Shown piece after piece: positions 1 to 62,264 of a DNA stretch of 64,000 nucleotides. Origin of the DNA: an uncultured Anaerolineales bacterium. GTDB taxonomy: Bacteria; Chloroflexota; Anaerolineae; Anaerolineales; UBA11858. Location of the stretch: positions 9,849 to 73,848 of the forward strand of contig CAYTKR010000004.1 of NCBI GenBank assembly GCA_964438295.1, given 5' to 3'. Under the pieces are notes generated by a model. It saw nothing but the letters and a program-made list of their open reading frames with translations, ran no database searches and had not been told where the DNA came from. Position numbers and translations under genes: made by a program. Every line of letters begins with the position of its first letter. The stretch's first letter is position 1.

Positions 1-2045
1 ATGCGCTTTGTTTTATCCAGCATCGAGCCCAGATCAGTCTGGAATGTGAGTTTCTCCAGTTGAGGGACGAAGTCCTCTAATTTGCTTTCCATATCTTCGC
101 GCACGAAATAGGCTGCGTCGGCAAAGCGCGCTCGGATGACGTCTTCATTGCCCCGAATGACAAGATCATAGGCACCATTGCCGGGTTTATTGGCGACGGT
201 GATGAAATAGGGGATCAACTCACCGTTTTTCTGGATGGGGAAATAGCGCTGGTGTTTTTTCATCACGGAGATGAGTACTTCGTCCGGGAGTTCGAGGTGA
301 CGGGGGTTGAACTCACCGAGAAGGGCAGTTGGCGCTTCAACTAGATGTGTGACTTCAAGCAACAAATCAGGGTCGTTGGGGATTTCACCATCGACCTTTG
401 CCGCCAGTGCGTGGATTTGATCTTCGATGACAGCCATGCGCTCTTCTGGATCTAGAAGGATACCTGCCGCTGCAATCTCATTGAAGTAGTCGCTGGAGCT
501 GTTAACGGGGATGGTTTTATTTTCAGTGAAGCGCAAACCCTGCGTGGTGCCCTGAGCTTGGAGCCCGGCGAATTCAAAGGGGATCAGGGCTTCGCCATGT
601 AGTGCCAACAACCAACGGATGGGTCGTGAGAAAGCAGTGTTGGTTTCATTCCAGCGCATGGTCTTGACGAAATGGATCTCAGCGACCAATTTGGGCAAGG
701 CCTCGGTTAGCACCTCGATGGATGTGCGGCCGTCTTGTTTCACCACTGCAACAACATATTCCCCGCCGTCGATCTCACGAGCTTCTAATTGGCCTACATC
801 AATGCCCTTAGAACGGGCAAACCCTTCGGCGGCCTTGGAGGGAACACCATCGGCGTCGAAGGCACGATTGGCAGGGGGGCCCTTGACCAATTCTTCAATA
901 TCTTCCTGGTTGGGGGCCAAATCTTCGACGTGGATGACTAAACGTCGGGGCGTGCCTAAGATCTTAATCTCACCATGCTCAAGGCGAAGTTCACCCAGCA
1001 AAGCGGGAACGCTCTTTCGTAACTGTGCCAGGGCATCTTCCAGGTCACCTGGGGGAAGTTCTTCGGTACCGATTTCTACAAGCACAGGTGCAGGGGTGTC
1101 AGGGTGGTGGGGTGCCGACGTGCTTGCATCCCCCTTGCTCCCACGTTCCCTTGCATCCGTGCCTTCTTCTCCAAGCCAGGGAAATTCCAAACGGGTGCGC
1201 TGTTCAATATATTCGTCCCCAATGCCACGTACCAGAGAGCGCATTCGGCGGAAGAATCCCGCCCGCTCGGTCACGCCAATGGCACCGCGTGTGTCGAGGA
1301 TATTGAAGGTATGTGAGCACTTTAGCAGATAGTCGTGGGCTGGCAGCACCTGATGGTTTTCCAGGCAAACCTTGGCCTCGGCTTCGTAGAGATCGAACAT
1401 TTGGCGCAAACGATCGACATTGGCCAGTTCGAAGGCATACTTGCTAGATTCTTGCTCGTTTTGCAAATAAACATCGCCATAGGTCATGCTCTGGTTCCAA
1501 CGGATGTCGCGAAAATCGCGCACACCCTGGATAGCCATGGCGATGCGCTCAAGCCCATAGGTCAGTTCAACGGCCACAGGGTCTAGTGTTTGCCCGCCAA
1601 CCTGTTGGAAGTAGGTGAATTGTGTGATCTCGAGACCATCCAGCCAGACTTCCCATCCCAAACCCCAGGCAGAGATGGCTGGTTGAGCCCAGTTATCTTC
1701 CACAAAACGGATATCATGTTTGTGGGGATCGATGCCAAGAGCAACCAGGGATTCCAGATAAAGCTCTTGGGGATTTCCAGGGTCGGGTTTGAGTATGACC
1801 TGATATTGGATGTGCTGGTAGAAACGGTTGGGATTTTCTCCGAAGCGACCGTCATCGGGTCGAATGGAGGGTTCTACGTATGCGACGTTCCAAGGTTCTG
1901 GCCCAAGGACGCGCAGTACAGTGCCGGGGTTCATAGTGCCAGCCCCGACCTCTGTGTGATAAGGCTGCCAAATCAGGCATCCCTTGTCGTTCCAGAAATC
2001 TTGCAGTGCAATGATGATTGATTGAAAGTCAAGTGGTTGGGTCAT
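1..2045 (-). CDS. glyQS: glycine--tRNA ligase, fused alpha (GlyQ) and beta (GlyS) subunits; 3' end runs off the window
   Basis: Hand translation of the minus strand gives an uninterrupted frame from ATG at 2045-2043 to position 1. It is absent from the ORF track because there is no stop in the window. The N-terminus [23 protein letters not shown] and the motif [22 protein letters not shown] are typical of GlyQ. After a linker ([26 protein letters not shown]) the frame continues [15 protein letters not shown] and ends [19 protein letters not shown], typical of GlyS. The plus-strand ORFs at 619-2021 are shadow ORFs. Confidence 0.9.
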
Positions 2046-2105
2046 AGATTGGATATTTTGTTTTCGGTATCAGGAATTAGGTATTGGGGGGGATTATACT
2101 CGGAA

Positions 2106-3509
2106 TTAGAACGTCAGCCAGCCCATCTCAAAGCCCAGGATTGCTGTTCCAATAAGGATAGCAATGATCGTGAGGATGATGCTCAGGACTGTGGCGAAGG
2201 TGATCGCAGAATCACGTGGTTTTTTCCCGCTGACCTCCCCGGTTTGGCCGTTGACAAGAATAGAATAGGATTGGCCCTTATAATGGTATGTTCCCACCCA
2301 AATTGGGAGTAATACATATTTAAAGGTCATGCCACTCCATTTGTGGTGTCCGGTTGAAAGATTGCGTTTTTTGCGATGAGGTAGGATCTTGAGATGCATA
2401 CTATTGCGAAAATTACCGATGATCAATTCCCGTGCGATCAAAGTTGCATCTGCTAATGAAATATCATAGGTCAGGGCTGGCCAACCAGCCAAAAATTCTG
2501 GTTTGAACTCGACGACTTCTTTGAGTTTGAAAGGGCGGATATCTTCTGAATGTTCCCGAGTGATAGATTTGCTGCCGGAGACCAGCATATCATCGAATAT
2601 TTGATATTCTACCCCTGAGCGTGATACCCAATGAGGATTATCATCGCTGCCTTCGTTGACTTCGCAGCGCCAGTGCAATTCCAGGATGCCGTCAAAGGTC
2701 CAGAATGGATAATACGCCGGACGCAAAGCCGTCTCTTGGGCGGATATGGAAGTTGATAGATCATCCGGCGTGAACCAGCCTTTTCCCAGCCATTCTTCAG
2801 CCAGATGCAAGGCTTGTTTTTGATCGATTTCTATGGGCCCAATAACTTGGGGATCAACGAGGTTCTTTGTTTCTTGGGACTCGATCAACTGGTTTGATCC
2901 ACAAAATGGACAGCGCAAGGCTCGTTGACCGGTTGGCCAGAGGCTGTCAGCACCGCAATTCTGACATTTGAGGTGATGCTGGGCCTCAGCCCACTGGTGT
3001 CCCCGTCGGGTTGGCAGCACAAATTCAAGCACCTGCTCCCCACTATCAGCTGCGAGTTCAGCATCGATCTCTCTTTCGAAGCCACAAAACAAACATTGCA
3101 ATGTCTGGCTCTGGGGATTGAATTCGGTTTGCCCTCCGCATTGGGAGCAGGCCAAGGTTTTTTCAGTCTGAGCAGCTATGGGTTCCTGGTTTTGGCGCGG
3201 CTGCACCCCCTCACCTGTGGGCAAGAGATCCTCTGCTTTGATCTTTCCATCCAACAGGGCGATTGCTCTGCGGGCGACTATGTTATAGGGGTCTGCTGCA
3301 AGGGCTGATTCAAGACAGGCGCGCTTTTCGTCGGGGTCGTCGGTGATTTCGGTCAGCCAAAGCCAGGGACGCGCATCATAGGGGTCCATGCGTATGCAAC
3401 GTTCAAGCAATCGGCGTGCCAGTTTGCGGCTGTCATTTTTGGCAGCCGTAATACCATCTCGTAGGGTATCTTCAAATTCACCTTCTGGCGAAAAGCCATA
3501 GGAAGTCAT
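2106..3509 (-). CDS. TPR-like / double zinc-ribbon membrane protein, function unknown
   Basis: 467-aa ORF with a helical TPR-like N-terminus. It has two CxxC..CxxC ribbons (CSQCGG..CLFCGF and CQNCGA..CPFCGS). A conserved-looking C-terminal part (LLPIWVGTYHYKGQSYSILVNGQTGEVSG) is followed by one TM helix. Confidence 0.75.
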   Translation of the reverse strand: MTSYGFSPEGEFEDTLRDGITAAKNDSRKLARRLLERCIRMDPYDARPWLWLTEITDDPDEKRACLESALAADPYNIVARRAIALLDGKIKAEDLLPTGEGVQPRQNQEPIAAQTEKTLACSQCGGQTEFNPQSQTLQCLFCGFEREIDAELAADSGEQVLEFVLPTRRGHQWAEAQHHLKCQNCGADSLWPTGQRALRCPFCGSNQLIESQETKNLVDPQVIGPIEIDQKQALHLAEEWLGKGWFTPDDLSTSISAQETALRPAYYPFWTFDGILELHWRCEVNEGSDDNPHWVSRSGVEYQIFDDMLVSGSKSITREHSEDIRPFKLKEVVEFKPEFLAGWPALTYDISLADATLIARELIIGNFRNSMHLKILPHRKKRNLSTGHHKWSGMTFKYVLLPIWVGTYHYKGQSYSILVNGQTGEVSGKKPRDSAITFATVLSIILTIIAILIGTAILGFEMGWLTF

Positions 3510-3540
3510 ACTGGAATTATAGCCTCAATTAAAAAGAATA

Positions 3541-3568
3541 CACCGCCGAGAAGAATCTCCCGGCGGTG
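3541..3568 (-). terminator. intrinsic terminator after the DsbA-like gene
   Basis: 8-bp GC stem CACCGCCG/CGGCGGTG. On the minus strand it is followed by TATTCTTTTTAATT. Confidence 0.6.
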
Positions 3569-3586
3569 CAATTTCTGAGAGCTGAA

Positions 3587-3628
3587 TACTGCTAACTGGT
3601 TACTGTTTACTGATCACTGATTCCTGTT
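3587..3628. repeat. heptanucleotide tandem repeat, 6 units (plus strand nACTGnT, i.e. AnCAGTn on minus)
   Basis: The units read TACTGCT AACTGGT TACTGTT TACTGAT CACTGAT TCCTGTT. The array abuts the stop codon of the DsbA-like gene. Confidence 0.7.
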
Positions 3629-4458
3629 CACGGAATCTCCCCAGATAGTTCCTGCTCGATCAAATTCTGGAAGACTTCAAAAGGTTGCGCCCCTACTAAT
3701 GGAATACCATTCACGAAGAAAGTCGGCGTAGAGCGCACACCCAGGCTGGCAGCGTATTCGTAATCTGCCATAACCTCTTCATTTTGGCGACCGCTATCCA
3801 GGCAGTCTGAAAAAGCATCCAAATCCAGGCTCAAATTGCTGGCATACTGTTCATAGGCGTTCTTATCTAAGCCTAATTCCATACTGAAGAGTAATTCACT
3901 GAATTCCCAATAAGTACCCTGTTCTCCAGCACAATTTGCTGCTGCGGCAGCCGGAGTTGCGTTGGGATGGATTGTCGTGAGCGGAAAGTCCCGATACACC
4001 AGTCGTACCTGATCGGGATAGGATTCTTGAATTTGAGGCCAAACCTCTAAATGCCATCTGCGGCAGTAGGGGCACTCATAGTCACTGAACTCGATAATCG
4101 TAATTGGTGCGTCATCAGATCCCCAAACTGGGTCATCATCTTCGGGAATGTCGTACCGCTGAACTTGTTGGGGTTCGGCCTGAACCTGTGCAGCCTGTGC
4201 GGGCGCGGCATCCGCAGTAGTTGGGGCTGTTGTCTCTGGGATTGTGCGTCCCCAAAAGATATAGCCTACAGCCAGTCCTACGACGAAGGCCAGGGGCAGC
4301 AGCGCGGCGTATACATGGGAACGCTTGAAGGTCAGTGTGCCAGTTTCAGAAGTTTCGTCTTCAAGTACTTCATCAATTTTGGGTTGGTCGAGGTCTTTTT
4401 CGATGACTTCTTCAGTGTCATCGATTTTGGCTTGGGTAGTGGTGGTCTCTTCTTCCAT
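3628..4458 (-). CDS. membrane-anchored DsbA-family thiol:disulfide oxidoreductase
   Basis: Acidic N-terminus, one TM helix (YAALLPLAFVVGLAVGYIFWG), and a thioredoxin fold with the CPYC active site (FSDYECPYCRRWH). Confidence 0.85.
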   Translation of the reverse strand: MEEETTTTQAKIDDTEEVIEKDLDQPKIDEVLEDETSETGTLTFKRSHVYAALLPLAFVVGLAVGYIFWGRTIPETTAPTTADAAPAQAAQVQAEPQQVQRYDIPEDDDPVWGSDDAPITIIEFSDYECPYCRRWHLEVWPQIQESYPDQVRLVYRDFPLTTIHPNATPAAAAANCAGEQGTYWEFSELLFSMELGLDKNAYEQYASNLSLDLDAFSDCLDSGRQNEEVMADYEYAASLGVRSTPTFFVNGIPLVGAQPFEVFQNLIEQELSGEIP

Positions 4459-4520
4459 AGTGGCGGGGATTATATCATGGTGAAGATTGCTGATTGATGA
4501 ATGGTGAATTAGGAATGTAG

Positions 4521-5525
4521 CTAGGGATGGTATTCATCTTCCCTTGGGGCCTGATTGACCGACTCGATAATATCGTCAAGCAGAGATAAGAACTCTTCTG
4601 GATGAACGCTGGTGAGGAGTTTTTTTCGGAATACCTTCGGGAGCCGATAGGGGGTCAGGTAGCGCACAGCATGCTTACGGAAGAGTACCAGGCCGATCTC
4701 CTCTCCATAGAATGCCAGGTTGCGTTCCAGGTGTTTGAGCATCATCTCGCGGACTTGCTCGAAGCTGACTTCTTCCCGGTCGAGGCGGTGAAAGATCCAG
4801 GGATTGCCGATGGCCGCACGCCCGATCATCACGGCGTCGCAGCCGGTATATTTTTTCATGCGATCGATATCGTCGGCGGTTTTCACATCACCATTGCCGA
4901 TCACGGGGATATTCACGGCCTCTTTGACCTCGGCGATCGCCTCCCAGTTGGCTTTACCCCTATAGCCTTGCTCTTTGGTGCGCCCGTGCAGGGCGATCAG
5001 CGCGCCACCGTTCTCTTCGACGATGCGGGCGATGAGGGGGTAATTGCGGCAGTCATCGTCCCAGCCCAGGCGGATCTTGCCGGTCAGGGGGATCTCTAAG
5101 GAGGCAGATAAGCGCTTGAAAATGCGCGCCACCTTCAAGGGAGTTCGCATCAGGCCCACCCCGGCGCCGCGGTTGGCGATGGTCTTGGACGGGCAGCCCA
5201 TATTAATATCGACGATGTCTGCCTCTAGCTCCTGGGCGCGCAGAGCGGCGGCCAACATCACCTCGGGATCTTCGCCATAAATCTGGATCACCACTGGGCG
5301 TTCGTCTTCTTCATAACGCAATTTGTCTGCGATCAGTTTGGGTGGCTTGAGAATCTCTTCGGCCTTGACGAATTCGGTATAGCTCATCGCCGAACCCAGC
5401 TCGCGACACAGGGAGCGGAAGGGCCAATCGGAAAAGCCGTCCATAGGTGAGAGGATGGCATCGCCGTGGATGGGGATGTGACCGATGTGGAAAGTGGGTG
5501 CGGGGTGCGGGGTGCGGGGGGGCAT
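4521..5525 (-). CDS. dus: tRNA-dihydrouridine synthase
   Basis: Dus signatures PMDGFSDWPFR, DINMGCP and HGRT..QGY are present over a 334-aa length. Confidence 0.9.
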   Translation of the reverse strand: MPPRTPHPAPTFHIGHIPIHGDAILSPMDGFSDWPFRSLCRELGSAMSYTEFVKAEEILKPPKLIADKLRYEEDERPVVIQIYGEDPEVMLAAALRAQELEADIVDINMGCPSKTIANRGAGVGLMRTPLKVARIFKRLSASLEIPLTGKIRLGWDDDCRNYPLIARIVEENGGALIALHGRTKEQGYRGKANWEAIAEVKEAVNIPVIGNGDVKTADDIDRMKKYTGCDAVMIGRAAIGNPWIFHRLDREEVSFEQVREMMLKHLERNLAFYGEEIGLVLFRKHAVRYLTPYRLPKVFRKKLLTSVHPEEFLSLLDDIIESVNQAPREDEYHP

Positions 5526-5532
5526 GGGGGAT

Positions 5533-5609
5533 TAGTGTTCAGTAACCAGTAAACAGTAGTCAGTTTGCCTTATCTGGTTACTGATTACTGGTCACTGGAA
5601 ACTGCTCAA
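5533..5609. repeat. heptanucleotide repeat block arranged as an imperfect palindrome
   Basis: Forward units are (TAGTGTT) CAGTAAC CAGTAAA CAGTAGT CAGTTTG. After the spacer ccttatc come the inverted units TGGTTAC TGATTAC TGGTCAC TGGAAAC TGCTCAA. The block fills the whole dus / radical-SAM spacer. Confidence 0.7.
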
Positions 5610-6487
5610 AGCAGCCTCATTTGTGAACTCTGCTTCGTGATTTTCTCGGGTGTGAAAACGGGCATTTGGGTGGCGATACCGTATTTGTAGACTGCTTTCT
5701 GGAAGAGATCATCCAACTGGCGCCAGTTGGGGGCGTTGCAGATGTAGCGACTTCCGTAACGCTGCACGTAGCGCTGTTTGACGCCAGGGAAGAGCTGATC
5801 GAGTTTGTCGTAGTAGTAGTCGCGGGAGCCCTCGCGCAGGCTCATGCCGAACCAGGGCAGGATGTAGGAGGCGCCGTTTTGATGGGCCAGTTCGACGATA
5901 TTGGAGATATTTTCAGGGGTGTCCTCGATAAAGGGCAGGATGGGCTGCATGGTGACCCCGGTGAGGATCCCGGCATTCGAGAGCGTTTTCATTGCCTCCA
6001 AGCGCGCAGATGTCGGCGGCGCTGCGGGCTCGAGCTTCTTCGCTAAAGCATCATCCGCGGTGGTGATAGTGAAACTGACCGCGGCGTAAACCTGGTTGAT
6101 CTCTTTCAGAGTTTCCAGGTCGCGAATAACCAGGTCGGACTTGGTGATGATGTGCACGGGAAATTGGTTCCTGGCAATAACTTCCAACGCCTGGCCAGTC
6201 AGGTTGACCTTGGCTTCGATGGGCATATAGGGGTCGTTCATCGAGCCGGTGCCGATAGTGCCTCGCACGCGCTTGCGGGGCAGCACATCTTCCAGCAGTT
6301 CGATGGCATTAGTCTTGATGTGAATGTCAGCGAAGTTCTCGATCTGGTAGCAGGTGGAGCGCGAGTCGCAGTAGATGCACTGGTGCTGGCAGCCCCGGTA
6401 CAGGTTCATGTTGTACTTCAGCCCGAAGTAGGTATCGGGCTGTTTGACATGATTGAGGATGGTCTTGCGCTGGATTTCGGTGATCAT
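5606..6487 (-). CDS. radical SAM protein (SplB / COG1533-like)
   Basis: CxxxCxxC cluster motif CQHQCIYCDS near the N-terminus; 293 aa. Confidence 0.85.
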   Translation of the reverse strand: MITEIQRKTILNHVKQPDTYFGLKYNMNLYRGCQHQCIYCDSRSTCYQIENFADIHIKTNAIELLEDVLPRKRVRGTIGTGSMNDPYMPIEAKVNLTGQALEVIARNQFPVHIITKSDLVIRDLETLKEINQVYAAVSFTITTADDALAKKLEPAAPPTSARLEAMKTLSNAGILTGVTMQPILPFIEDTPENISNIVELAHQNGASYILPWFGMSLREGSRDYYYDKLDQLFPGVKQRYVQRYGSRYICNAPNWRQLDDLFQKAVYKYGIATQMPVFTPEKITKQSSQMRLL

Positions 6488-6495
6488 GGATCTGA

Positions 6496-6528
6496 AGACT
6501 TCCGAAGTCTCCGAGACTTCGGAAGTCT
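6496..6528 (-). terminator. 33-nt perfect palindrome / REP-like hairpin downstream of radA
   Basis: AGACTTCCGAAGTCTC-c-GAGACTTCGGAAGTCT, with 16-nt arms, lies between the radA stop (6531) and the radical-SAM start (6487). Confidence 0.6.
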
Positions 6529-6530
6529 GA

Positions 6531-7931
6531 TTACTCCTCCACCAACGCCTTTTTCAACGCTTCCCTAAGCGACCTTACTTCCACCACTTCAATTCCTTTG
6601 GGCCACTTCTGGCCTTTACCAATTCGTCGGGGCACGACTGCTGTCTTGAAGCCCAGTTTTGCTGCCTCGCGCAATCGGGCTTCCATCTGGCCGACCATGC
6701 GCAGTTCACCAGACAGGCCCACTTCGCCGATGAGCACGGTGTCAGCCCGTACAGGGGCGTCCTTGACTGAAGATGCAATAGCGGCAGCGACGGCCAGGTC
6801 GGCGGCGGGTTCGCTGATCTTCAGGCCGCTGATCACGTTGACAAAGACGTCCTGTTCGGCCAGGCGGACTCCAACCCGGCGGCTGAGCACGGCAACATTC
6901 AGTAACAGGCGGTTGAAGTCGATGCCGTTGGGTGTACGGCGAGGGTTGCCAAAGGAGGTGTGGCTGGTCAGGCCCTGGATTTCGACCAGCAGAGGACGAG
7001 TGCCCTCCATAGTCACGGCGATAGCCGAGCCAGGGGCGTTGACCATGCGCTCGGCCAGGAAGGCCTCTGAGGGGTTGCTGACCTCGACCAGGCCGCGGTC
7101 GCGCATCTCGAAGACGCCTACCTCGGATGTGGCACCGTAGCGGTTCTTGACCGTGCGCAGCAGGCGGTATACCTGGAAGCGATCTCCCTCTAGATAGAGC
7201 ACGGCGTCGACGATGTGCTCCAATACGCGCGGCCCGGCGATGGTGCCTTCTTTGGTGACGTGCCCGATGATGAAGACAGTCACCCCGCTGGCTTTGGCCA
7301 ACTCTCTCAATCGAGAAGCCGTCTCGCGCACCTGGGTGACAGAACCGGCAGAAGATTCCAGTTGAGGGAGATAGGTGGTCTGGATGGAATCCACTACGAT
7401 CAGTTGGGGCTTTACCACCTCAATGTGCTCCAAAATGATATCCAGGTTGGTTTCGGTGACCAGGAAGAGATCATCAGGTAGATTGCTCTTCTCTTCACCT
7501 GATTCAGGAGACAGTAGCCGCATGGCGCGCATTTTGATCTGCCGGTCGGACTCTTCGCCGGAGATATACAAGACGGTGCCCTGGCTGGCCATTTCTAAGG
7601 TAGCCTGCAGCAAGAGAGTCGATTTGCCGATGCCAGGGTCGCCGCCGATGAGCACAACGGAGCCTGGGACGATGCCGCCGCCCAGAACCCGCGAGAACTC
7701 TTCGATGGGCACTGGGATGCGATCTTCGACATCGCCGGTGATTTCGGAGAGGCGCCTTGGGGTGGAGCGTTCTCCCATGCTGGGGCGGGCGTGCTTTGCA
7801 GATGGAGTGGTCTTTTCGATGGTCTCTGCGACCATGCTGTTCCAGGAATCACACTTGGGGCAGCGGCCCATTTGCCGGGGCGAAGTGCGCCCGCATTCCT
7901 GACAGACATATTGTGTATACGTTTTTGCCAT
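6531..7931 (-). CDS. radA: DNA repair protein RadA/Sms
   Basis: N-terminal zinc finger (YVCQECG..CPKC), Walker A GGDPGIGKSTLLLQ, the KNRYG motif, and a Lon-like C-terminal domain. Confidence 0.95.
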   Translation of the reverse strand: MAKTYTQYVCQECGRTSPRQMGRCPKCDSWNSMVAETIEKTTPSAKHARPSMGERSTPRRLSEITGDVEDRIPVPIEEFSRVLGGGIVPGSVVLIGGDPGIGKSTLLLQATLEMASQGTVLYISGEESDRQIKMRAMRLLSPESGEEKSNLPDDLFLVTETNLDIILEHIEVVKPQLIVVDSIQTTYLPQLESSAGSVTQVRETASRLRELAKASGVTVFIIGHVTKEGTIAGPRVLEHIVDAVLYLEGDRFQVYRLLRTVKNRYGATSEVGVFEMRDRGLVEVSNPSEAFLAERMVNAPGSAIAVTMEGTRPLLVEIQGLTSHTSFGNPRRTPNGIDFNRLLLNVAVLSRRVGVRLAEQDVFVNVISGLKISEPAADLAVAAAIASSVKDAPVRADTVLIGEVGLSGELRMVGQMEARLREAAKLGFKTAVVPRRIGKGQKWPKGIEVVEVRSLREALKKALVEE

Positions 7932-48393: not shown

Positions 48394-48963
48394 AATACCA
48401 AATACCCATCCAACCATGGGAGATCAGTAACACAGCCCCTGCCTGACCTGAATCTTTTTCTGAGTGTGTAATACCATACCTTCACAAGTCTGGGGCCGCG
48501 CTTGGGGTGAACTCAGATATCTGCTGCTAGCGATTGTTCATCCTCAACATGGTTAGTTAATATTTACGTCGGTTTTATAGACTCCCACTTCTACCCCCGA
48601 TACACTCACATAAGCTATCAACCAAAATTGGGCATGGAATATCTTTTGATTTATGCACTTGAATAATTGTGTGCTCAAAATTTTATCGCCTAACAGTGTT
48701 CAATCTACGTGCATTTCATAGAAATGGAATCATCATACGGAGTCACCAGCATGGTAGATCAAATGGGTTCACAGTCAACCGCGGTCCCCCAGATGAATAA
48801 CGCCCAAAAGTCATCTGAAGAGAGCAATCGTTCGGATTTTTTGTTCATCTGGTTGCGCATCCAATGGCTGAAATCTCGCCTGGCTTACATTCTCTCTCGA
48901 CTACGTGCGCTGCACTTCCGCCGCGGCTGGGGCTCTCGCTCCAGGAGAGAACTCCGCCGAATA

Positions 48964-50829
48964 ATGAAGGCCGCTGCATCAATGTTGTTAGCTGCCTCGA
49001 TGTTGCTGGTTCCCCTCAGCCCGGCTTACTCCGCGGATGTCACGTTTGCCGAACGGACGGGCATAGACAATCCCTTCAACGGCGTGGATGTAGGAAATTC
49101 CAGTTCTCCCAGATTCGTGGACATTGATGGGGATGGCGATATGGATGCCTTCATTGGAGAATATGGTGGCTCTGTTCTCTATTATAAAAATACCGGCACA
49201 AATCTAGCCCCCAAATTTACCCAACAAACTGGCGCCGACAATCCTTTAGATAGCGTGAGTACGGGAACAAACAGCGTCCCCTGTTTTGTGAATGTGGATG
49301 GAGATGGCGATATGGACGCCTTCATCGGGGCTGGGAATGGAAAAATACTCTATTATAAGAACACCGGTACAAACCTGGCCCCAGTCTTTACCCAACAAAC
49401 CGGCGGCGACAATCCCTTCGACGGCGTGGATGTGGGTGACGATAGCGCGCCAACCTTCGTGGACGTGGACGGGGATGGGGATAAGGATGCCTTCATTGGG
49501 GCATTTGACGGAAAGATCTATTACTATAAGAACACCGGTACGAACCTGGCCCCAGTCTTTACCCAACAGACCGGCGGCGATAACCCCTTCGACGGCGCAG
49601 ATGTGGGGTTTAGCAGCGCTCCAACTTTCGTAGATGTGGATCGAGATGGCGATGAGGATGCCTTCATCGGGGCATTTGACGGTACGATCTATTACTATAA
49701 GAATACCGGTACCAATCTAGCTCCAGTCTTCACCCAGCAAACCGGCGCTGATAACCCCTTTGATGGGGTGGATGTGGGGAGCGCAAGCAAACCCAGCTTC
49801 GCAGATATAGACGGGGATGGGGATAAGGATGCCTTCATTGGGGCTGACGATGGGAAGATCTATTATTATGAGAATACCAGCCCACCTCCCTCATCAGACG
49901 AAGGCGGCGATGACGCTGCTGATGCCGGCAGTGACGATAGCTCCGGATGCAGTTTTGGAGTAGGGGAATCGGGGGGTACGTATAACTGCGATTTTGGGAA
50001 GGTAGTACTCCCCGCGGGCACCGTTGATGAGGCCTGTCAACTGGTCATCGAAGAAAGTTCCAGCGGTAACTTCAAGCTGGGCGATCAGGTTTATGACGTA
50101 AAGTTGATTTGTAATGGTCAGAATGTGACACAGCTTCCCAAGTCAATCAAGGTTTGCATCCGGCCGACGATGGGGGGTACGGTGGGGAAACAGCTCTTTC
50201 ATCAGCACAACGAAGCCAGCGTGTTCACCCCGCTGGATGTTGTGGGTGGCCCGGCGGGTCATGTCTGTGGGCAGACCAGCAAACTCTCGCTCTTTGGCCT
50301 GGGGACGCTGCAGCTGCCAGATACCGGTTTCACACCTGGTGTGGTGACATTGCTCGAAGAGCAACCTGCTGAGCTAATCTACTCGGAGACAGGGGGTTTG
50401 AGATTGGAGATACCATCGTTGGGGGTGGAACTGCCCATCGTTGGAATTCCACTGACAGGGGAGGGCTGGAATGTAAATTGGCTTGGAGAGTCCGCTGGCT
50501 ATCTTGAGGGCACCGCCTTCCCTACCTGGGCAGGCAACACCGCCATCACCGCCCACGTCTGGGATGCGAACAATCAACCAGGGCCATTCGTTGATCTGCA
50601 CATGTTGCATTTCGGTGATCAACTTTTCATCAATGCCTGGGGGAAAGTTTACACTTACGAGGTGCGTGATGTAATGCAAGTGCGCTCTGATGACCTGCGC
50701 GCCCTACCGCACGATGACTACGACGTGTTGACGCTGATCACGTGCCAGGGTTTCAATGCGTCCAGCGGAGAGTATGATTGGCGATTAGCTGTGAGGGCGG
50801 TGCTTGTATCAGTAGACAGTAATCAGTAA
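48964..50829 (+). CDS. secreted FG-GAP repeat protein carrying an internal LPDTG motif and a C-terminal sortase domain
   Basis: Signal peptide MKAAASMLLAASMLLVPLSPAYSA, then five FG-GAP/calcium-loop repeats (DIDGDGDMDAFIG type). LPDTG is at 50314-50328. The sortase domain has His (AITAHVW), TLITC (Cys codon 50743-50745) and Arg (WRLAVRA). An alternative upstream start at 48709 cannot be excluded. Confidence 0.85.
   Translation: MKAAASMLLAASMLLVPLSPAYSADVTFAERTGIDNPFNGVDVGNSSSPRFVDIDGDGDMDAFIGEYGGSVLYYKNTGTNLAPKFTQQTGADNPLDSVSTGTNSVPCFVNVDGDGDMDAFIGAGNGKILYYKNTGTNLAPVFTQQTGGDNPFDGVDVGDDSAPTFVDVDGDGDKDAFIGAFDGKIYYYKNTGTNLAPVFTQQTGGDNPFDGADVGFSSAPTFVDVDRDGDEDAFIGAFDGTIYYYKNTGTNLAPVFTQQTGADNPFDGVDVGSASKPSFADIDGDGDKDAFIGADDGKIYYYENTSPPPSSDEGGDDAADAGSDDSSGCSFGVGESGGTYNCDFGKVVLPAGTVDEACQLVIEESSSGNFKLGDQVYDVKLICNGQNVTQLPKSIKVCIRPTMGGTVGKQLFHQHNEASVFTPLDVVGGPAGHVCGQTSKLSLFGLGTLQLPDTGFTPGVVTLLEEQPAELIYSETGGLRLEIPSLGVELPIVGIPLTGEGWNVNWLGESAGYLEGTAFPTWAGNTAITAHVWDANNQPGPFVDLHMLHFGDQLFINAWGKVYTYEVRDVMQVRSDDLRALPHDDYDVLTLITCQGFNASSGEYDWRLAVRAVLVSVDSNQ
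49045..49899 (+). repeat. five tandem 171-bp (57-aa) coding repeats (FG-GAP units)
   Basis: Units start at 49045, 49216, 49387, 49558 and 49729. Units 3 and 4 are nearly identical at the protein level. Confidence 0.85.
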
Positions 50830-53272: not shown

Positions 53273-54703
53273 TCAAGGCGTCGCCTTCCAGGTCAGGTAA
53301 TCGAAGGTCAGGCCATTGGTATCGAAATGAGTCGGGCGCAGCCAGCCATAATAGGTGCCCGTACCAGGCGTGAACTGATAGCAATAGTAATCAGTTTCAG
53401 AAATGGGCCAGATGGCAGCCTGGTTGTACGAGGCATTCTCGCAGTCAGACTTGGCTGGCTCGCTGGCCATGGCAGCGGAGAAGAGAACTTCATTTGGTGA
53501 GATCTGCATCACTGTGAGGGTATTGCGGGTCATTTCCCTGTATAGGAACCCAGCGAAGGTGCCGCTGCAGCTCTCATTGAGATTTCCGTATTGCACATCG
53601 AAGCACTCCCCAGGGAGCATGGTGACCTGATCGCCCTGGCTCTCGACGAAGAGAGCATTGGGATTGATGGGCTGCATCTGGGGTGGATCAACCTCGAAGG
53701 TCATGAAATCGAAGGTGACGCCATCCTGGTCGAAACGCTCAACCCGAATCCAACCGTAGGTCGTGTTGACGATATTGCTGATCTGGAAGCAGAAGTACTT
53801 ATCTTCCAGGGCAGAGTGTGCAATCGGAATATAGATTTCAGCTTCACAGGTAGCTTTGTCGGGCTCGTCATCACGGTTTGTTGCCAGTTCGGTATTATTC
53901 TCTCCATGAAATTTTCCGCTCGTCACAGGGTTGAACTGGTACATGATGTCTGCCGCCGAGTCGCTGCAATCTACTTCCTGACCGTTGTTGAGATCGAAGC
54001 ATTGCCCATCCAACAGAGTCAGTTCGGTACCCGTTATCTGCGCCTCGGGATTGTTTTCCGGTTCAGGGGTTGGGGCCGGGGTGTTGCCGCCGCTGGGAAT
54101 GACTTTGATTGCAACTCTCAGCGGGCTATTCGGCGGAGCGTCCATCCCAAAAACATGACCCTGTGCATCAACCATCTTCCATGCGGAGACATAAGCACCC
54201 GGTTGAGCGGGGGCCTGCATTTCGACAGATAGCGTTGTCGTGTGCCCCGGCGCTACCGGCGTAGAAATAGAAAGAATTTCCTCTGAAACACTGATATCGC
54301 CTCCCAGCATCTTCAATTTGTATTGCGGCTTCCAGGTGCAGTCGCCGGTATTCTCGATGGTCCAATTGACCTGAAAGACCTCATCTGGCTGGAACTGCTG
54401 GCCGTTGGTGACATCGGCGTTGGCGATGAAGCCCTCGCTACATTGAACTCCGTTCTGGGGCTGGGAAGGCTGAACTGGTTGATTAGGTTCCTCTGGCTCT
54501 GGAATGTCAGGTTCTTCCGGTTCATCCTGTTGTTCTGGGGGAAGTTCGATCTCAGGCTCACTTGTATCAGGTTGTTGAACGGTTTGATCCTCGGGTGGAG
54601 TATCCACCTCGGGGGTCTCTGATAATCCTGGCAAGGAACAGGCAAATTGTGCCAAGGCTAATGTAACGATAATCGACATTAGAACAATGACTTTGTACTT
54701 CAT
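53273..54703 (-). CDS. secreted lipoprotein with a duplicated C-terminal domain, function unknown
   Basis: Signal/lipobox MKYKVIVLMSIIVTLALAQFAC-S (ATG at 54703 with AGGAGG upstream) and a P/E-rich linker. A possible NBR1-FW-like segment (NWTIENTGDCTWKPQYKL) is followed by two related ~125-aa modules ending YGWIRVERFDQDGVTFDF and YGWLRPTHFDTNGLTFDY. Confidence 0.7.
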   Translation of the reverse strand: MKYKVIVLMSIIVTLALAQFACSLPGLSETPEVDTPPEDQTVQQPDTSEPEIELPPEQQDEPEEPDIPEPEEPNQPVQPSQPQNGVQCSEGFIANADVTNGQQFQPDEVFQVNWTIENTGDCTWKPQYKLKMLGGDISVSEEILSISTPVAPGHTTTLSVEMQAPAQPGAYVSAWKMVDAQGHVFGMDAPPNSPLRVAIKVIPSGGNTPAPTPEPENNPEAQITGTELTLLDGQCFDLNNGQEVDCSDSAADIMYQFNPVTSGKFHGENNTELATNRDDEPDKATCEAEIYIPIAHSALEDKYFCFQISNIVNTTYGWIRVERFDQDGVTFDFMTFEVDPPQMQPINPNALFVESQGDQVTMLPGECFDVQYGNLNESCSGTFAGFLYREMTRNTLTVMQISPNEVLFSAAMASEPAKSDCENASYNQAAIWPISETDYYCYQFTPGTGTYYGWLRPTHFDTNGLTFDYLTWKATP

Positions 54704-54783
54704 GACGGCCTCCTTTGGAGTACTCTCCATTTACTCGTTTGAAAAACATGAAGCTTGTGAAGTGGTCTTAGGATAGCACAGAG

Positions 54784-57259: not shown

Positions 57260-58789
57260 CTAAGGTCTGCTCTCTGGAATGCAAACAAGCTGTGATTGCC
57301 TGATTTGACAAGAGCCGCTGACTTCCTTGTTGGGATGTTGGATAGTACAAGCCGCGCCTACAACCAAGCTTCTGCAGGCATCTAACGCCCTTTGGTGTTG
57401 TTCGTTGTTTCTTTGAGAGCCTCCTGCTTCCGGGGGTTCAGCTTTGAGTGTTTCTCCAGGCTCTAGATTCAGGCTCGCCAATCCAGGGTAATTGGCAGCG
57501 AATTGTGTTACGCGAAAAACATTATCGCCAAAATCATAGCTCCAAACGATTTCGCCTGCTGGCGTGACCTCAAAGAAAAAGCCATTCGGGCCGCTGCAGA
57601 TCAGCGTATTGCCATTGGGTAAACGCTGCGCCCCAGAGATGTGGTCGGCGAAAAAGTCGGGGGGATTTTCGGCCTGGTACGTCCAGGTGGGGGCCTCAGG
57701 GCCATATGCCGCGCCAGGTGTCAGGCTATAGCTGCCATCTTCGTTTGAGGGTGGAGTAATCTCATCTACGGTGGAGTAAACACGGGCGGCCTTGTGCCCG
57801 TTGTTGAACACCAAGATATTGCCTCCACCGGGGTAATCGGTGGGAATCCATTGGGCGTCATGCTGAACATAAAGCTGCCGATCCTCTTCGGTTCCAGAGT
57901 CATAGGCCTCAGGGTTGCCCCAACGATAGAGCAAGTCGCCCGCGGGCCCGGCGGCTTCTTCGGTGGTTGTGTCGTGATCAATGATCCAAATCTCGCTAAA
58001 CCCATGCACGCTGAGCATGATCTGATCCAGTACAGCGTTGTAGTCGATGGCGTTGGTGTGGTTCCAGTCCGCACTGGACTCGCGGGCGGTGTGATTGAGA
58101 TCGATCAACTCAGGATGTTCAGCTACCACGCCGTAGTTCCCTTTGGTTGCATCATAATCCTGAACGAGATGATCCCAGACATGCCACTCCCAGACGATTT
58201 GATCGGTGTTGGGATCCACCTCGATGACGTGATCCGGCCAGAGTTCGCCATCTTTTAGTAAGCTGGGATCGCGCCCGGCGGCGATGGCCTCGGCGCGAGT
58301 CTTATACTCCCATGCGATCATCAGGATGTTGCCGTTGGGGAGTTGCTCGATATCGTGGTGCTGCTGCACCTGGTTGTTAGCATACCTGAATTCCCAGACG
58401 ACAGTATTGTCGGGGGCGATCTCCTGCACCACACCGCCGGATCCGCCGGCGTCGAAAACGCCTGTTTTTACCGTGCCGGGTTGCAGCAGGTTGCCGTTCT
58501 CCAGCAGATACACAGAATTGCCTGGAGTGTAGTCGCTTCCCCAGGTGTAGACGGCCACACCCTCGGCGTTCATCAGGTGAGTTTCAGTGGAACGAATGGG
58601 GGAGAAAAAGTATAGTGCTTCCGAAGAGAGCTGTTCCTCTGAGGATAGCAAATTGTTTTCGCCAGAATCATCTGGGACCGAAACTTCGCTTGTAGCCTCG
58701 GCTGTTTGATCAGTGAAGCCTGCCAGGAGTGAACAGGCTAGAGTGCTGAAAAGGATAATCGTGATCAGGAGAAGCTTTTTGCTGTGCAT
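57260..58789 (-). CDS. arylsulfotransferase (ASST)-like beta-propeller lipoprotein with a C-terminal 4-Cys module
   Basis: Lipobox FSTLAC-S, then ASST-like motifs LLENGNLL and QQHHDIEQLPNGNILMIAWE. The tail is ALDACRSLVVGAACTIQHPNKEVSGSCQIRQSQLVCIP. Confidence 0.7.
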   Translation of the reverse strand: MHSKKLLLITIILFSTLACSLLAGFTDQTAEATSEVSVPDDSGENNLLSSEEQLSSEALYFFSPIRSTETHLMNAEGVAVYTWGSDYTPGNSVYLLENGNLLQPGTVKTGVFDAGGSGGVVQEIAPDNTVVWEFRYANNQVQQHHDIEQLPNGNILMIAWEYKTRAEAIAAGRDPSLLKDGELWPDHVIEVDPNTDQIVWEWHVWDHLVQDYDATKGNYGVVAEHPELIDLNHTARESSADWNHTNAIDYNAVLDQIMLSVHGFSEIWIIDHDTTTEEAAGPAGDLLYRWGNPEAYDSGTEEDRQLYVQHDAQWIPTDYPGGGNILVFNNGHKAARVYSTVDEITPPSNEDGSYSLTPGAAYGPEAPTWTYQAENPPDFFADHISGAQRLPNGNTLICSGPNGFFFEVTPAGEIVWSYDFGDNVFRVTQFAANYPGLASLNLEPGETLKAEPPEAGGSQRNNEQHQRALDACRSLVVGAACTIQHPNKEVSGSCQIRQSQLVCIPESRP

Positions 58790-59148
58790 GTTGGTTTGCT
58801 TTCGTGTTGTTCCTAGCTAGAGCGATTAAAACCTATAGAACTTACGCAGTTTGGAGAGGAAATTGATCGTTAAAATCACAAATAAGCCGGTTGAGGCTCT
58901 CGAACCCAGCGGAGGGCTTCGAGAACATTTCGGTAAGCTCAATTCGCCGCCTCAGCCCTCCGGCGTAATTTTCGGATAGATATTTAGTACACTGTAAAAT
59001 AAGTTATTCTCGATTATCTCACTGAGCGGAGGAGCAGAAGCGTCTTTCGACTACTTCCCGAACTGCTTCGGGCTTCCGCTCAAGATGCTTCTGCTCCGTA
59101 GTCGAAGTGACACAGGATCCACTTCAAGTTACTTTGTTTACAATGTAT

Positions 59149-60477
59149 TTAGTTCGATTGAGAGTCATCAAGCGGGGTGCCGTCGAAACCGGGGTAGTCA
59201 GAATAGTAACGTTCAACACGGAAGACGGCATTGCGTACGGGATCGGGCTCGTGGATCTGGTATTCCCAGACCGATTGGCCTGAATAAGTTACCTCGAAGA
59301 GGTATGAGTCCCCTCCGTTGCAAGTCAACGTATTGCCGTTGGGGAGCCGCTGGGCCCCCGAAATGGATTTAGCATAAAAGTCGGTGGGATTTGGGGCTGT
59401 ATAGATCCAGACCGGTTCGTCGGGGTTGTAGGCGGAACCCGCGGCAAGGGGGTAGGTGCCGTCAGGGTTCACTGGTGGCGTTATCTCGACGATCGATGAG
59501 TATTTACCATCCGGACGTCTCATGCCGTTGTTGAAGATCAAGATGTTGCCCTCCCCAGGCAGCCCGGCCCCAATCCACTCGGCGTCGTGTTGGTGAAAGA
59601 GCTGCTGATCGGCGTCAGTCCCTGCATCGTAGGTTTGGGGGTTGCCCCAGCGATAGAGCAGGTCACCGCCCACCCCGCTATTGCCACCTGTGTGACCAGC
59701 CGCTTCAGCAGTGGTTGTGCTGTGGTCAATGACCCAGACTTCGCTGAAGCTGTGGACACTCAGCAAGATCTGATCCAGTTCTGCGTTGTAATCAACGGCG
59801 TTGGAGTGGAACCAATCGGCGGCGTTAAACCCGACATAGTTCAGGTCGATCAGCTCGGGGTGGTCGGCAACGACGCCAAAGTTGTCCTTGGTGGCATCAT
59901 AATCCTGAATGAGATGGTCCCAGGCATACCACTCCCAGACGATATCGCCCGTGGTGGGCCCGGTGGGTTGCACCTCGATGATACTGCCCGGCCACAACTC
60001 GCCATCTTTCAAAAGCGATGGATCGCGACCCGCGGCAAGGGCCTCAGCTTCAGTCTTGTACTGCCAGGCGATCATCAGCACGTTGCCATTGGGCAGCATC
60101 TCGACGTCGTGGTGCTGCAAGTGTGTGCTGCTGGAGTACTCATACTCCCAAGTGACATTTCCATCCCAGTCGATCAACTGGACGATGCCGCCTGCACCGT
60201 CTGCTCTGAAGGTACGATTACGCGCTCCGCCAGTGTAAAGCAGTTGACCGTTTTCCAGGAAATACACTACATTGCCAGGTTTGTAGTTGGTTTCCCAGGA
60301 GTGGACGATGTTCCCTGCATTGTCCACCAGGTTGACTGTCGTTGTGTGGAGTAGTACGAACAGGTTGTAGTCTTCGGTGCCAGGTTCTTCCTGACCAGCG
60401 GCCTTATCCACTAACGCAAACGCCGGGATCGATACGCTCAGCAAAACGATTAGGATAGTAAGGGAAATTTTCTTCAT
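59149..60477 (-). CDS. arylsulfotransferase (ASST)-like secreted protein (paralog without the 4-Cys module)
   Basis: The signal peptide and long blocks match the 57260-58789 protein (AAGRDPSLLKDGELWP, DYDATK.NFGVVA.HPELIDLN). Confidence 0.7.
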   Translation of the reverse strand: MKKISLTILIVLLSVSIPAFALVDKAAGQEEPGTEDYNLFVLLHTTTVNLVDNAGNIVHSWETNYKPGNVVYFLENGQLLYTGGARNRTFRADGAGGIVQLIDWDGNVTWEYEYSSSTHLQHHDVEMLPNGNVLMIAWQYKTEAEALAAGRDPSLLKDGELWPGSIIEVQPTGPTTGDIVWEWYAWDHLIQDYDATKDNFGVVADHPELIDLNYVGFNAADWFHSNAVDYNAELDQILLSVHSFSEVWVIDHSTTTAEAAGHTGGNSGVGGDLLYRWGNPQTYDAGTDADQQLFHQHDAEWIGAGLPGEGNILIFNNGMRRPDGKYSSIVEITPPVNPDGTYPLAAGSAYNPDEPVWIYTAPNPTDFYAKSISGAQRLPNGNTLTCNGGDSYLFEVTYSGQSVWEYQIHEPDPVRNAVFRVERYYSDYPGFDGTPLDDSQSN

Positions 60478-60492
60478 GCTGATCTCCTTTCT

Positions 60493-60530
60493 CCCCTCAC
60501 CCCAACCCCTCTCCCTCAGGGAGAGGGGAG
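60493..60530 (+). repeat. REP-like element CCCTCACCCC-N-CCTCTCCC-N3-GGGAGAGG, copy 2
   Basis: CCCCTCACCCCAACCCCTCTCCCTCAGGGAGAGGGGAG lies between the DUF1566-like gene and the ASST paralog. Confidence 0.6.
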
Positions 60531-60585
60531 TCGTGCGCGCCAGAGGCGGGCCTCCGGCCAGTGATACGGGATAAGGGTATAAAAT

Positions 60586-62214
60586 CTATGGTTGCCCTTG
60601 TCCTGAGCCCGTTGGAGGGGCACCACCAGGGCCGCCTGCGGGCACGCAAGCCAAGGTGCTTTGTATGTTCGTACAACTGCCGTCTAATGTTCCTCGGGGA
60701 GTATTGATGGTGCAAGCTGCCCCTTCACTCAAGGCTGAACAAGCATCGATGGCTTCTTGTGGAGGCGCGCCTTGAGCGCCGGGACCTGGGCCAATGACCG
60801 TTGATGAAGTTTGTCCAGGCCCTTGGGATTGGCCTGAGTCCGCAGGGATCCCTGCAAATTCCGAGCTGGCCAGAGCGTTCGGATCGGTTTCACCGCCGGT
60901 GAGAACCTCTCCTGTGGTGCCGCCGGATACACAGCGGGCATAGTTGTAGATGCGTACGGCATCACCCTGCGGGCCGTGGCCTGTTGGGTAATTGGAAGGA
61001 TCACCACTTTTTTGGTCAGCCCGTTGTGCCCCGGCGCCATGGACATCCATCCAGGTGCCGTTCATATAGCCCATCGAGCGACCGAAGTTGATGTATACAC
61101 CTGAACGACTAAAGCCATCAGCATTGGTATGTGTGGTGCTGCTCCAATAGGCTGGATAATCTGATTGACCAGCTTCGTTCGTGATCATAGAGACATTGAA
61201 GATAGGATCGATGGCCGCTGAGTTGGTTGTGTCTGGTGAGCGAGAGTAATCGACGATGCTGTGCAATTCTTTTGCATTGGGCAATCGCCAATCGCTGATA
61301 CCGCCATATTCGAGACTGAAGCAGTAGTTCAAAGCGCCTTCCCAGTCCAGAGAATTTCCGCTGTCAGATTGCATCCAGGTCAGGCCAGTGGCCAAGTCGC
61401 CAACAGTTCCAGCTTGTCCTGAGCTTGACGAAGGGTCACCGTTGTCGACGAAGTTGTTGATTCCATAGTTGGTGTTGCCGCGTACATAAATTACAAAGTA
61501 AGTCTTAGCCTGGCCACCACGCGTCGAGCCAGTGGGATACCCTTTGATTCGTCCGTCTGCGAAGTTGACCCCAAACATGGCCTGGCTACCGTTCATGACA
61601 CTGCCACCATAGATTGTGCTGGTGGCCCACTGCGAGTCGATAGTGCGTTCACCAGCGGAGGTGTTTCCATACTCGAAGACGAAGTAATCGGTATCGATGA
61701 AAGGAATACCTGTGCAAGTGCCTTCTTCGACACACCGACTGACGTCGGTGCCACTGAAATCGATCAATGAATATAGTTCTTTGATGGTAGGTAAGCGCCA
61801 ATCGTTGTACCCACCCAATGTCAGACTGGATGCGCTCGCAACCGCCTGGTCATAAGTCATTTTATTCCCAGGGTCTTGCTGCCACATCAATTCTGTCACC
61901 AGGTCGGTTATTGTGCCGTCACCATTATCCTGATAGCGTGCCTGATTGCCAATCACCTGGCCATCCTGTCCGTAGTAGGATTGTCCTTCTTCCGGGCAAG
62001 GGATGCTCGTGGAATCGCTGTAGCAATATTCTTGTCCAGTATCCACAATGGCGTAGTTGTAGCCAGTTGCGTCAGCCGTATTCTGCGCCACAGATTGGGA
62101 AAAGGCGTCCGCGCTATTTGCTAGAACTGAGGCGAATGGGAATAAAATATTGCTGGCCGTGATGGCGAAACCGAGTGCAATTGCAACAATAAAGGCTTTT
62201 CTTTGCTTGTTCAT
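60586..62214 (-). CDS. DUF1566 (Lcl C-terminal domain)-like secreted protein with a C-terminal 4-Cys module
   Basis: Two DUF1566-type motifs (DWRLPTIKELYSLIDF and DWRLPNAKELHSIVDY). The tail is AIDACSALSEGAACTINTPRGTLDGSCTNIQSTLACVP. The ATG at 62214 has AAGGAG upstream. Confidence 0.75.
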   Translation of the reverse strand: MNKQRKAFIVAIALGFAITASNILFPFASVLANSADAFSQSVAQNTADATGYNYAIVDTGQEYCYSDSTSIPCPEEGQSYYGQDGQVIGNQARYQDNGDGTITDLVTELMWQQDPGNKMTYDQAVASASSLTLGGYNDWRLPTIKELYSLIDFSGTDVSRCVEEGTCTGIPFIDTDYFVFEYGNTSAGERTIDSQWATSTIYGGSVMNGSQAMFGVNFADGRIKGYPTGSTRGGQAKTYFVIYVRGNTNYGINNFVDNGDPSSSSGQAGTVGDLATGLTWMQSDSGNSLDWEGALNYCFSLEYGGISDWRLPNAKELHSIVDYSRSPDTTNSAAIDPIFNVSMITNEAGQSDYPAYWSSTTHTNADGFSRSGVYINFGRSMGYMNGTWMDVHGAGAQRADQKSGDPSNYPTGHGPQGDAVRIYNYARCVSGGTTGEVLTGGETDPNALASSEFAGIPADSGQSQGPGQTSSTVIGPGPGAQGAPPQEAIDACSALSEGAACTINTPRGTLDGSCTNIQSTLACVPAGGPGGAPPTGSGQGQP

Positions 62215-62264
62215 GGTTTGCTCCTTGATTATACAAGTAATCTTGGACAAATCTTAACAAACGC

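Follow-up and report, generated by a model that had tools for sequence, protein, structure and literature searches.

An LPXTG motif fused to its own sortase at the C-terminus of variable secreted proteins: a candidate self-processing module of Anaerolineales

Textbook sortases are membrane-anchored and act in trans on separately encoded substrates, and a canonical sorting signal is defined by an LPXTG pentapeptide, a hydrophobic segment and a positively charged tail. In a 64,000-nucleotide stretch of DNA from an uncultured Anaerolineales bacterium (contig CAYTKR010000004.1; this whole stretch is called the window below), an intact open reading frame (ORF) of 621 codons at 48964-50829 on the plus strand encodes a 621-aa protein that combines both partners in one polypeptide. 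The pentapeptide is present as LPDTG, but neither the hydrophobic helix nor the basic tail follows it; as the initial annotation of the gene had noticed, a soluble sortase domain stands there instead (166 aa, ending in ...VLVSVDSNQ). Every element listed in that annotation (signal peptide, five FG-GAP repeats, Cys-containing region, LPDTG and the catalytic sortase segments) was recovered in the same place (Table 1). The protein family resembles the classical pathway in that L, P, T and G are fixed while x is free, in the catalytic triad and in its Sec-exported passengers, which are like surface proteins. It differs in that both membrane-retention elements are absent and no separate substrates or sortases are seen nearby.

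Reviews distinguish six sortase classes, A to F. The best matches to the fused domain, in sequence and in structure, are class C enzymes (SrtC1 and SrtC2 of group B Streptococcus (GBS), SrtC-1 of Streptococcus pneumoniae and of Actinomyces oris, and the Ebp SrtC of Enterococcus faecalis). Class C sortases have a transmembrane anchor, which is characteristically C-terminal, and a lid with the motif DP[FWY] that covers the active site; this lid, whose Pro overlaps the Pro of the LPAT peptide in the SrtA complex, is considered a pseudo-substrate (PMC3493515). The window family shares with them the eight-stranded barrel, the His/Cys/Arg triad and an N-terminal segment ~130-140 residues before the Cys. 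By contrast, it carries a true LPXTG-F in place of the DP[FWY] lid, has no N- or C-terminal membrane anchor and no nearby pilin genes, and its enzyme is the C-terminal domain of large and varied secreted proteins.

The order of the parts (target, LPXTG, a tether of ~20-30 residues, sortase) is that of the engineered autocyclases (Jia et al. 2023, PMC9985607), and by analogy it is these that the window protein would most resemble in its working. Autocyclases of the form target-LPGTG-linker(7-19 aa)-SrtA form an intramolecular thioester with first-order kinetics, which is then resolved by an amine, by intermolecular routes or by hydrolysis (PMC9985607). Self-cleaving sortase purification tags, such as BISOP, are also established (PMC2901362). 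These are laboratory constructs, and the autocyclases join Staphylococcus aureus SrtA through flexible Gly-Ser linkers (PMC9985607, PMC2901362), whereas the window family is natural, secreted and widespread, and its tether is conserved and modelled at high confidence, consistent with docking. A variable passenger with a conserved, removable C-terminal cassette is also found in the arrangement of C-terminal domain (CTD) and sortase-like transpeptidase PorU of the T9SS (type IX secretion system), in Hedgehog/Hint proteins and in autotransporters; their folds and chemistry are unrelated to those described here, and none of them uses a sortase domain in cis. In Hedgehog a Cys thioester is likewise formed in cis. 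The T9SS, treated in PMC4560394, differs further from the window family in requiring a separate peptidase and an outer membrane.

The window protein is read here, at a probability of roughly 0.55, as a secreted "auto-sortase": a variable passenger followed by a C-terminal cassette of LPXTG motif, tether of ~20-25 residues and soluble, catalytically complete sortase, which would process itself. The fused domain is a member of the sortase superfamily by threshold, by fold and by triad. It matches PF04203 (sortase superfamily, MEROPS C60) over aa 481-615 with E=2.9e-19 and 69.5 bits against a cut-off of 26.6, covering model positions 1-125 in full, and also TIGR01076 (sortase_fam; 47.2 against a cut-off of 39.35). 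The residues H531, C594 and R607 are invariant in three alignments (A1, A2 and A3, including those of 103 and 60 members). The initial annotation had allowed that the domain might lack a sortase fold, and here it fared well. An AlphaFold2 (AF2) model of the module alone (aa 449-621) forms the eight-stranded β-barrel with a mean predicted local distance difference test (pLDDT) score of 96.4 and a predicted TM score (pTM) of 0.91, and Foldseek matches it to many solved sortases at E about 1e-10 and TM 0.6-0.8, with class C on top and class D next. Against the syntenic ortholog L002, from another uncultured Anaerolineales metagenome-assembled genome (MAG), the ratio of nonsynonymous to synonymous substitution rates (dN/dS) in the sortase domain is 0.08, which indicates purifying selection. 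Judged from its sequence, the fused domain looks like a real and active sortase.

Assignment to a class is less straightforward. The annotation had proposed classing by hidden Markov model (HMM), which placed the domain in the superfamily (PF04203) but in none of the NCBIfam classes at cut-off: the best class score, 51 bits for the class C model NF033745, is below the cut-off of 160, and the models for classes D, E, F and GN score far under theirs. Sequence searches also return class C sortases as nearest. The features that distinguish this class are nevertheless absent. The segment equivalent to the lid reads LPxTGFxPG and has no DP[FWY]; the 25-28 residues after the Cys hold no transmembrane anchor (maximum Kyte-Doolittle hydropathy over 19 residues 1.76, mean 1.08, for the family module); and no clustering with pilin genes is seen, as no neighbour family recurs across 82 loci.

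The evidence that ties the motif to the enzyme comes from the family. In 142/142 newly returned representatives the catalytic Cys is preceded by [LIVMA]Px[TS]G at a distance of 136-178 aa (mode 143), and LPXTG and sortase thus occur together far beyond chance. Column information is low upstream of the motif (0.5-1.4 bits at aa 441-450) and then jumps at L451 (3.2 bits, 186/232), continuing with P452 (4.32 bits, 232/232), the variable x453 (1.44 bits), T454 (4.13 bits, 227/233), G455 (4.24 bits, 232/234) and F456 (4.21 bits, 236/239). Thr-Gly is retained in >97% of family members, and among 103 aligned members neither the Pro nor the Gly of LPxTG varies, which is equally true of the catalytic His, Cys and Arg. 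In the tether, T462, L464, Q467 and Y473 are also conserved. The possibility, raised in the annotation, that homologs would not conserve LPDTG is answered by these counts. Since the conserved cassette begins exactly at the Leu and leaves x free, the pattern is the signature of a sortase substrate rather than of just any structural loop.

Members that seemed to have no LPXTG proved to be truncated, to carry a linker insertion (L006, P0007), or to have one of the variants WPLAGF, WPDTGF, LPESGF and PPKTGF; these are rare and keep the Pro and the Gly-Phe. The PPKTGF variant, with Pro for Leu, is common to both copies of one tandem locus (L037). Insertions of ~40 residues (P0007; L006 5080-6840) occur only between the tether Tyr (Y473) and strand β1, and because they are confined to this gap, the LPXTG tether behaves as a separately docking peptide. 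In P0007, P0005 and L006 the insertions follow QPxxxxY, some of them with Cys pairs, and the LPXTG-F tether is fully conserved. In one partial sequence from a Chloroflexi MAG (P0035) the docking peptide is duplicated in tandem, with LPSTGFRHGEVTQLPKQPAA occurring twice before a single sortase domain.

This arrangement is not a one-off, and the annotation's picture of a curiosity linked to its neighbours gives way to that of one member in a very large modular family. Querying proteins with aa 383-621 yielded 203 relatives, most of them of Chloroflexota/Anaerolineae metagenomic origin and with many different N-terminal Pfam domains. Those whose sequence extends far enough upstream have a [LIVMA]PxTG motif at a constant distance from the Cys of TLxTC, most often 143 residues. 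The survey of relatives that the annotation had suggested was made as a profile search of 1.84 billion cluster representatives (50% identity), in which 18,240 matches passed E<=1e-3 and 1,636 clusters passed E<=1e-30. The GTDB species genomes hold at least 580 loci, nearly all in Anaerolineales and several per MAG; one member (L071, JAFGSU010000288.1) stems from a MAG labelled candidate division KSB1, where mis-binning or horizontal transfer is possible. The module lies at the extreme C-terminus in 150/150 best profile matches, which are proteins of 280-3,239 aa. In nearly all of 82 modules (80 genomic loci) ~25-28 residues separate the Cys from the stop codon, and in the window protein 27 residues follow the Cys. 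No membrane-spanning segment was found in the module of any of 142 new representatives, and 87 of these have a Met start and an N-terminal hydrophobic stretch. The family can be defined by [LIVMA]Px[TS]G-F ~143 aa before TLxTC, a module at the extreme C-terminus without transmembrane segment, and a variable passenger bearing a signal peptide. The window protein shows every one of these features, and the module of L002 is 85% identical to its own.

A search with one Anaerolinea-like module returned MAGs only. Two cultured carriers were found by a degenerate DNA pattern search: Longilinea arvoryzae KOME-1 (locus L133, a 683-aa ORF with LPDTGF) and Levilinea saccharolytica KIBI-1 (locus L171, a 1,091-aa ORF with LPVTGF). 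Short members that would qualify as stand-alone enzymes did not withstand inspection. The 197-aa P0083 turned out to be the C-terminal part of a giant, frameshifted gene with SdrD_B repeats, and others (e.g. the 182-aa P0042) are fragments at contig ends or have mis-called starts. The giant gene, L001 (ERZ25039459 contig_5625) 938-6594, encodes a surface protein that was called as three overlapping ORFs through apparent frameshifts, P0083 being the last. Judging by P0083, database entries for short "stand-alone" sortases of this family are probably artefacts of this sort. Database names for the members are limited to "sortase" or "LPXTG-site transpeptidase family protein", and no description of a natural LPXTG-sortase fusion was found in the full-text literature searched, which excludes most subscription journals. 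The Chloroflexota fusion family is thus apparently undescribed so far.

The passengers are highly diverse. Sixty full-length members carry 52 Pfam families, including Chlam_PMP, Big_5, Big_12, FG-GAP, DUF11, beta-helix, TIG, Kelch, Laminin_G and BNR, and one member is a giant SdrD_B-repeat protein. By domain content, the repertoire is one of surface or adhesin-like proteins, and the passengers appear to be shuffled among cassettes. Five loci (L019, L037, L039, L136 and L144) hold tandem arrays of 2-3 paralogs, each with its own LPXTG-sortase cassette.

By contrast, the surroundings of the module hold no constant element. When the ORFs of 82 loci were clustered all against all, no partner gene recurred beside it; the only large extra cluster was an artefact of antisense ORFs within the sortase coding region. 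The two-component system and the DUF4915 gene to which the annotation had drawn attention do adjoin the window gene, but they are not conserved partners: the two-component synteny is confined to close relatives, a functional link to DUF4915, histidine kinase or response regulator was rejected, and these neighbours are best regarded as incidental. In 895 kb of family neighbourhoods around 80 fused modules, neither convincing classical signals (LPXTG, transmembrane segment and basic tail) nor stand-alone sortases were found. The 64-kb window likewise contains no further LPXTG-type motif with a sorting tail in any frame, in agreement with the annotation.

Structure models suggest how motif and enzyme are arranged. 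The AF2 model of aa 383-621 (239 aa, 103 sequences) has a mean pLDDT of 92.4, and the coil that bears LPDTG reaches 89-97. In the module-only model the first ten residues, LQLPDTGFTP, form a free N-terminal coil with a pLDDT of 93. In the AF2 models the tether is predicted as coil at 93-96. Since the motif keeps a pLDDT of 93 when the upstream domain is omitted, these confidence values suggest that its packing partner is the sortase domain and not the domain upstream. In GBS SrtC2, Pro85 of the lid lies 133 residues before Cys218 (PMC3493515). In an alignment the lid Pro of E. faecalis SrtC precedes the Cys by 132 residues and the Pro of β1 by 27; the corresponding distances from P452 of the window protein are 142 residues to C594 and 32 to P484. 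By sequence position, the LPXTG lies in what is probably the equivalent of the class C lid, a few residues further out. The high-confidence placement and the equivalence to the lid indirectly support the view that LPDTG can reach its own enzyme. Structurally, the module resembles a class C sortase in which the lid, a pseudo-substrate, became, or remained, a true substrate.

We infer groove occupancy, cleavage, action in cis rather than in trans and the identity of the acceptor as follows. After Sec export and removal of the signal peptide, the tethered LPDTG would sit in the substrate groove of its own sortase, at the position of the class C lid. Cys594 would attack the T454-G455 bond to give a passenger-LPDT thioacyl enzyme, which would be resolved by an amine; the acceptor would most likely be an amine of the cell wall or envelope, alternatively another protein or water. 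The passenger would be attached covalently or released, and the 167-residue sortase domain shed. Because enzyme and substrate are tethered, no membrane anchor would be needed, which would account for the absence of both the hydrophobic/basic tail of the substrate and the transmembrane segment of the sortase. A self-contained cassette would also explain its shuffling onto many passengers and the separate copy in each paralog. The natural spacing between G455 and β1 is 19-26 residues, by estimate comparable to the autocyclase designs if ~14 N-terminal residues of the truncated SrtA before its first strand are counted. Somewhat short of an even bet is the wider proposal that Anaerolineales, and possibly other Chloroflexota, use membrane-independent, single-use anchoring, in which each surface protein brings its own cis sortase and is ligated to envelope, sheath or foreign amines. 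On this proposal the Gly-Phe leaving group would stay docked and could make the thioester a reversible, latent "warhead" that is resolved only on meeting the correct acceptor, and the family would be the natural counterpart of engineered autocyclases and self-ligating tags.

Several points weigh against self-processing. A high pLDDT denotes confident placement, not occupancy of the groove. By linear distance from β1 the motif is ~5 residues beyond the class C lid Pro, and an HMM alignment of low confidence sets the class C DPF 4-9 residues after LPXTG. An invariant Gly-Phe and tether that are stably docked fit an uncleaved structural lid equally well, and a soluble sortase would be far from lipid II, the classical acceptor. 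The census of classical substrates covered gene neighbourhoods only. Covariation (mutual information with average product correction, effective number of sequences about 241) was dominated by subfamily signal and discarded as evidence; it leaves a weak hint only for the pair L451-position 580, with A451 accompanied by I580 in 8/11 cases.

The strongest competitor, though unlikely, is an uncleaved pseudo-substrate lid. Here LPXTG-F would plug the active site permanently or reversibly, and the protein would be a secreted sortase that is brought to a site by its N-terminal binding domains and acts there on other proteins. The nearest structural relatives are lid-bearing class C sortases, whose lid overlaps the substrate peptide as a pseudo-substrate (PMC3493515), the motif and tether are modelled at very high confidence, and F456 and the tether are as invariant as a structural element would be. 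The lids of class C, however, are uncleavable DP[FWY] segments, whereas the present motif is a cleavable consensus with its Thr-Gly kept and x free, and a complete triad facing its cognate motif is expected to cut. No convincing classical sorting signal that would mark a separate substrate turned up in the 895 kb around 80 family genes; 52 different and often giant adhesin-like N-terminal architectures are unexpected for an enzyme, and the membrane anchor is absent.

The cassette may instead be a self-removing C-terminal pro-domain, perhaps a helper in folding or secretion, where water resolves the intermediate and leaves a free passenger ending in ...LPXT. The architecture and conservation speak for this as they do for the auto-sortase, engineered autocyclases are known to undergo hydrolysis as a side reaction (PMC9985607), and how a soluble enzyme would get to lipid II is not obvious. 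A transpeptidase fold with invariant Arg and docked Gly-Phe leaving group would nonetheless be elaborate for simple proteolysis, and passengers of the surface/adhesin type (Chlam_PMP, DUF11, Big, SdrD_B, FG-GAP) usually need anchoring, which makes this reading improbable. Less probable again is intermolecular polymerization: every subunit would come with a class-C-like polymerase of its own, the thioester would be attacked by an adjacent subunit through a Lys or the N-terminal amine, and covalent fibres or sheath material would be built on these filamentous bacteria. The nearest relatives are pilus-polymerizing class C sortases, engineered autocyclases give tandem or oligomeric products at high concentration (PMC9985607), and tandem paralog arrays exist; against it, the module contains no invariant Lys, the passengers are too diverse for a shared acceptor motif of the pilin type, and there are no pilin-like neighbours. 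Finally, it is very improbable that a separate membrane-anchored housekeeping sortase cuts the LPXTG and the fused domain serves only as leaving group or recognition domain: the motif is the canonical one of housekeeping sortases and the search for stand-alone enzymes was confined to gene neighbourhoods, but the invariant triad and the dN/dS value speak for the fused domain being an enzyme in its own right, the 895 kb yielded no stand-alone sortase, and no retention signal would hold the substrate at the membrane.

If the auto-sortase reading is true, sortases would gain a further mode of action, in cis, stoichiometric and anchor-free, carried as a cassette by hundreds of different secreted proteins. 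Filamentous Chloroflexota abound in wastewater, sediments and subsurface habitats; the reading would give access to their poorly understood cell envelope and explain how these bacteria display giant adhesin-like proteins. The module could also supply self-ligating or self-cleaving tags optimized by evolution, with a tether that is conserved and modelled at high confidence in place of the empirical Gly-Ser linker. Direct tests of the hypothesis are feasible, given that cultured carriers exist and the module has only ~170 residues.

Table 1. Parts of the window gene and its neighbours, with window coordinates.
Feature	Nucleotides	Strand	Residues	Remarks
Sec-type signal peptide	48964-49035	+	1-24	MKAAASMLLAASMLLVPLSPAYSA; probable cleavage after AYSA; from translation
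Passenger, five 57-aa FG-GAP/Ca-loop repeats	49036-49878	+	25-305	Pfam, repeat period, motif positions
Pro/Ser/Asp-rich spacer and Cys-containing β-sandwich-like domain	49879-50313	+	306-450	last variable part of the passenger
LPDTG sortase recognition motif	50314-50328	+	451-455	predicted scissile bond T454-G455
Conserved tether/docking peptide	50329-50403	+	456-480	25 aa, F-x-P-G-x-V-T-x-L-P-x-Q-P-x4-Y; family conservation
Soluble sortase catalytic domain	50404-50826	+	481-621	Pfam PF04203, invariant triad; no transmembrane anchor
Catalytic His (AITAHVW)	50554-50556	+	H531	invariant in family alignments
Catalytic Cys (TLITC)	50743-50745	+	C594	invariant in family alignments
Catalytic Arg (WRLAVRA)	50782-50784	+	R607	invariant in family alignments
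Upstream neighbour: DUF4915
Downstream neighbours: histidine kinase and response regulator		-		two-component genes

The passenger of the window protein, read as an FG-GAP module of β-propeller type with a Cys-rich β domain behind it, is regular. The motif YY[KE]NT recurs at aa 73, 130, 187, 244 and 301, an exact spacing of 57 aa, and each repeat has a DxDGDGDxDAF Ca-loop. Tandem Repeats Finder gives a period of 171 nt, and the Pfam matches are FG-GAP_3 (1.1e-14) and FG-GAP (2.2e-8). The domain that follows contributes β strands at aa 390-448 in the AF2 model. Upstream of the ATG at 48964, which is preceded by AGGAGA 15 nt to the 5' side, the frame remains open for 85 more codons from a GTG at 48709 (48709-48963). 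This extension is basic, without signal-peptide features, and nearly identical in L002; it may be translated or may simply be conserved 5' sequence.

The locus L002 is syntenic with the window at 83-94% nucleotide identity and thus comes from a close relative, and its protein has the same start as the window protein. It has 4 FG-GAP repeats vs 5, the missing copy being exactly one 57-aa unit (window 49462-49632, aa 167-223), so that the copy number varies between close relatives. The synonymous substitution rate (dS) between the window gene and L002 4756-6717 rises from 0.12 for aa 25-382 through 0.49 for aa 383-450 to 0.98 in the sortase domain. This sharp change within the gene suggests an internal recombination breakpoint, and the histories of passenger and cassette may differ. 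The downstream two-component genes share only ~83% nucleotide identity with those of L002.

The window is otherwise an ordinary chromosomal region, with genes for DnaE, a ClpB-like protein, S1, a RadA-like protein and SerRS. On the minus strand, 53273-54730 encodes a 485-aa secreted protein with one N_BRCA1_IG domain (3.6e-21) and two similar C-terminal modules of ~120 aa, which contain Cys pairs, end in YGW[IL]R…FD..G[VL]TFD[FY][ML]T[FW] and have no Pfam match; homologs occupy the same position in two related loci. Further along, at 57260-62250 on the same strand, there are two adjacent arylsulfotransferase (ASST) paralogs (57260-58789 and 59149-60477) and, after them, a protein that has two Lcl_C domains (60586-62250).

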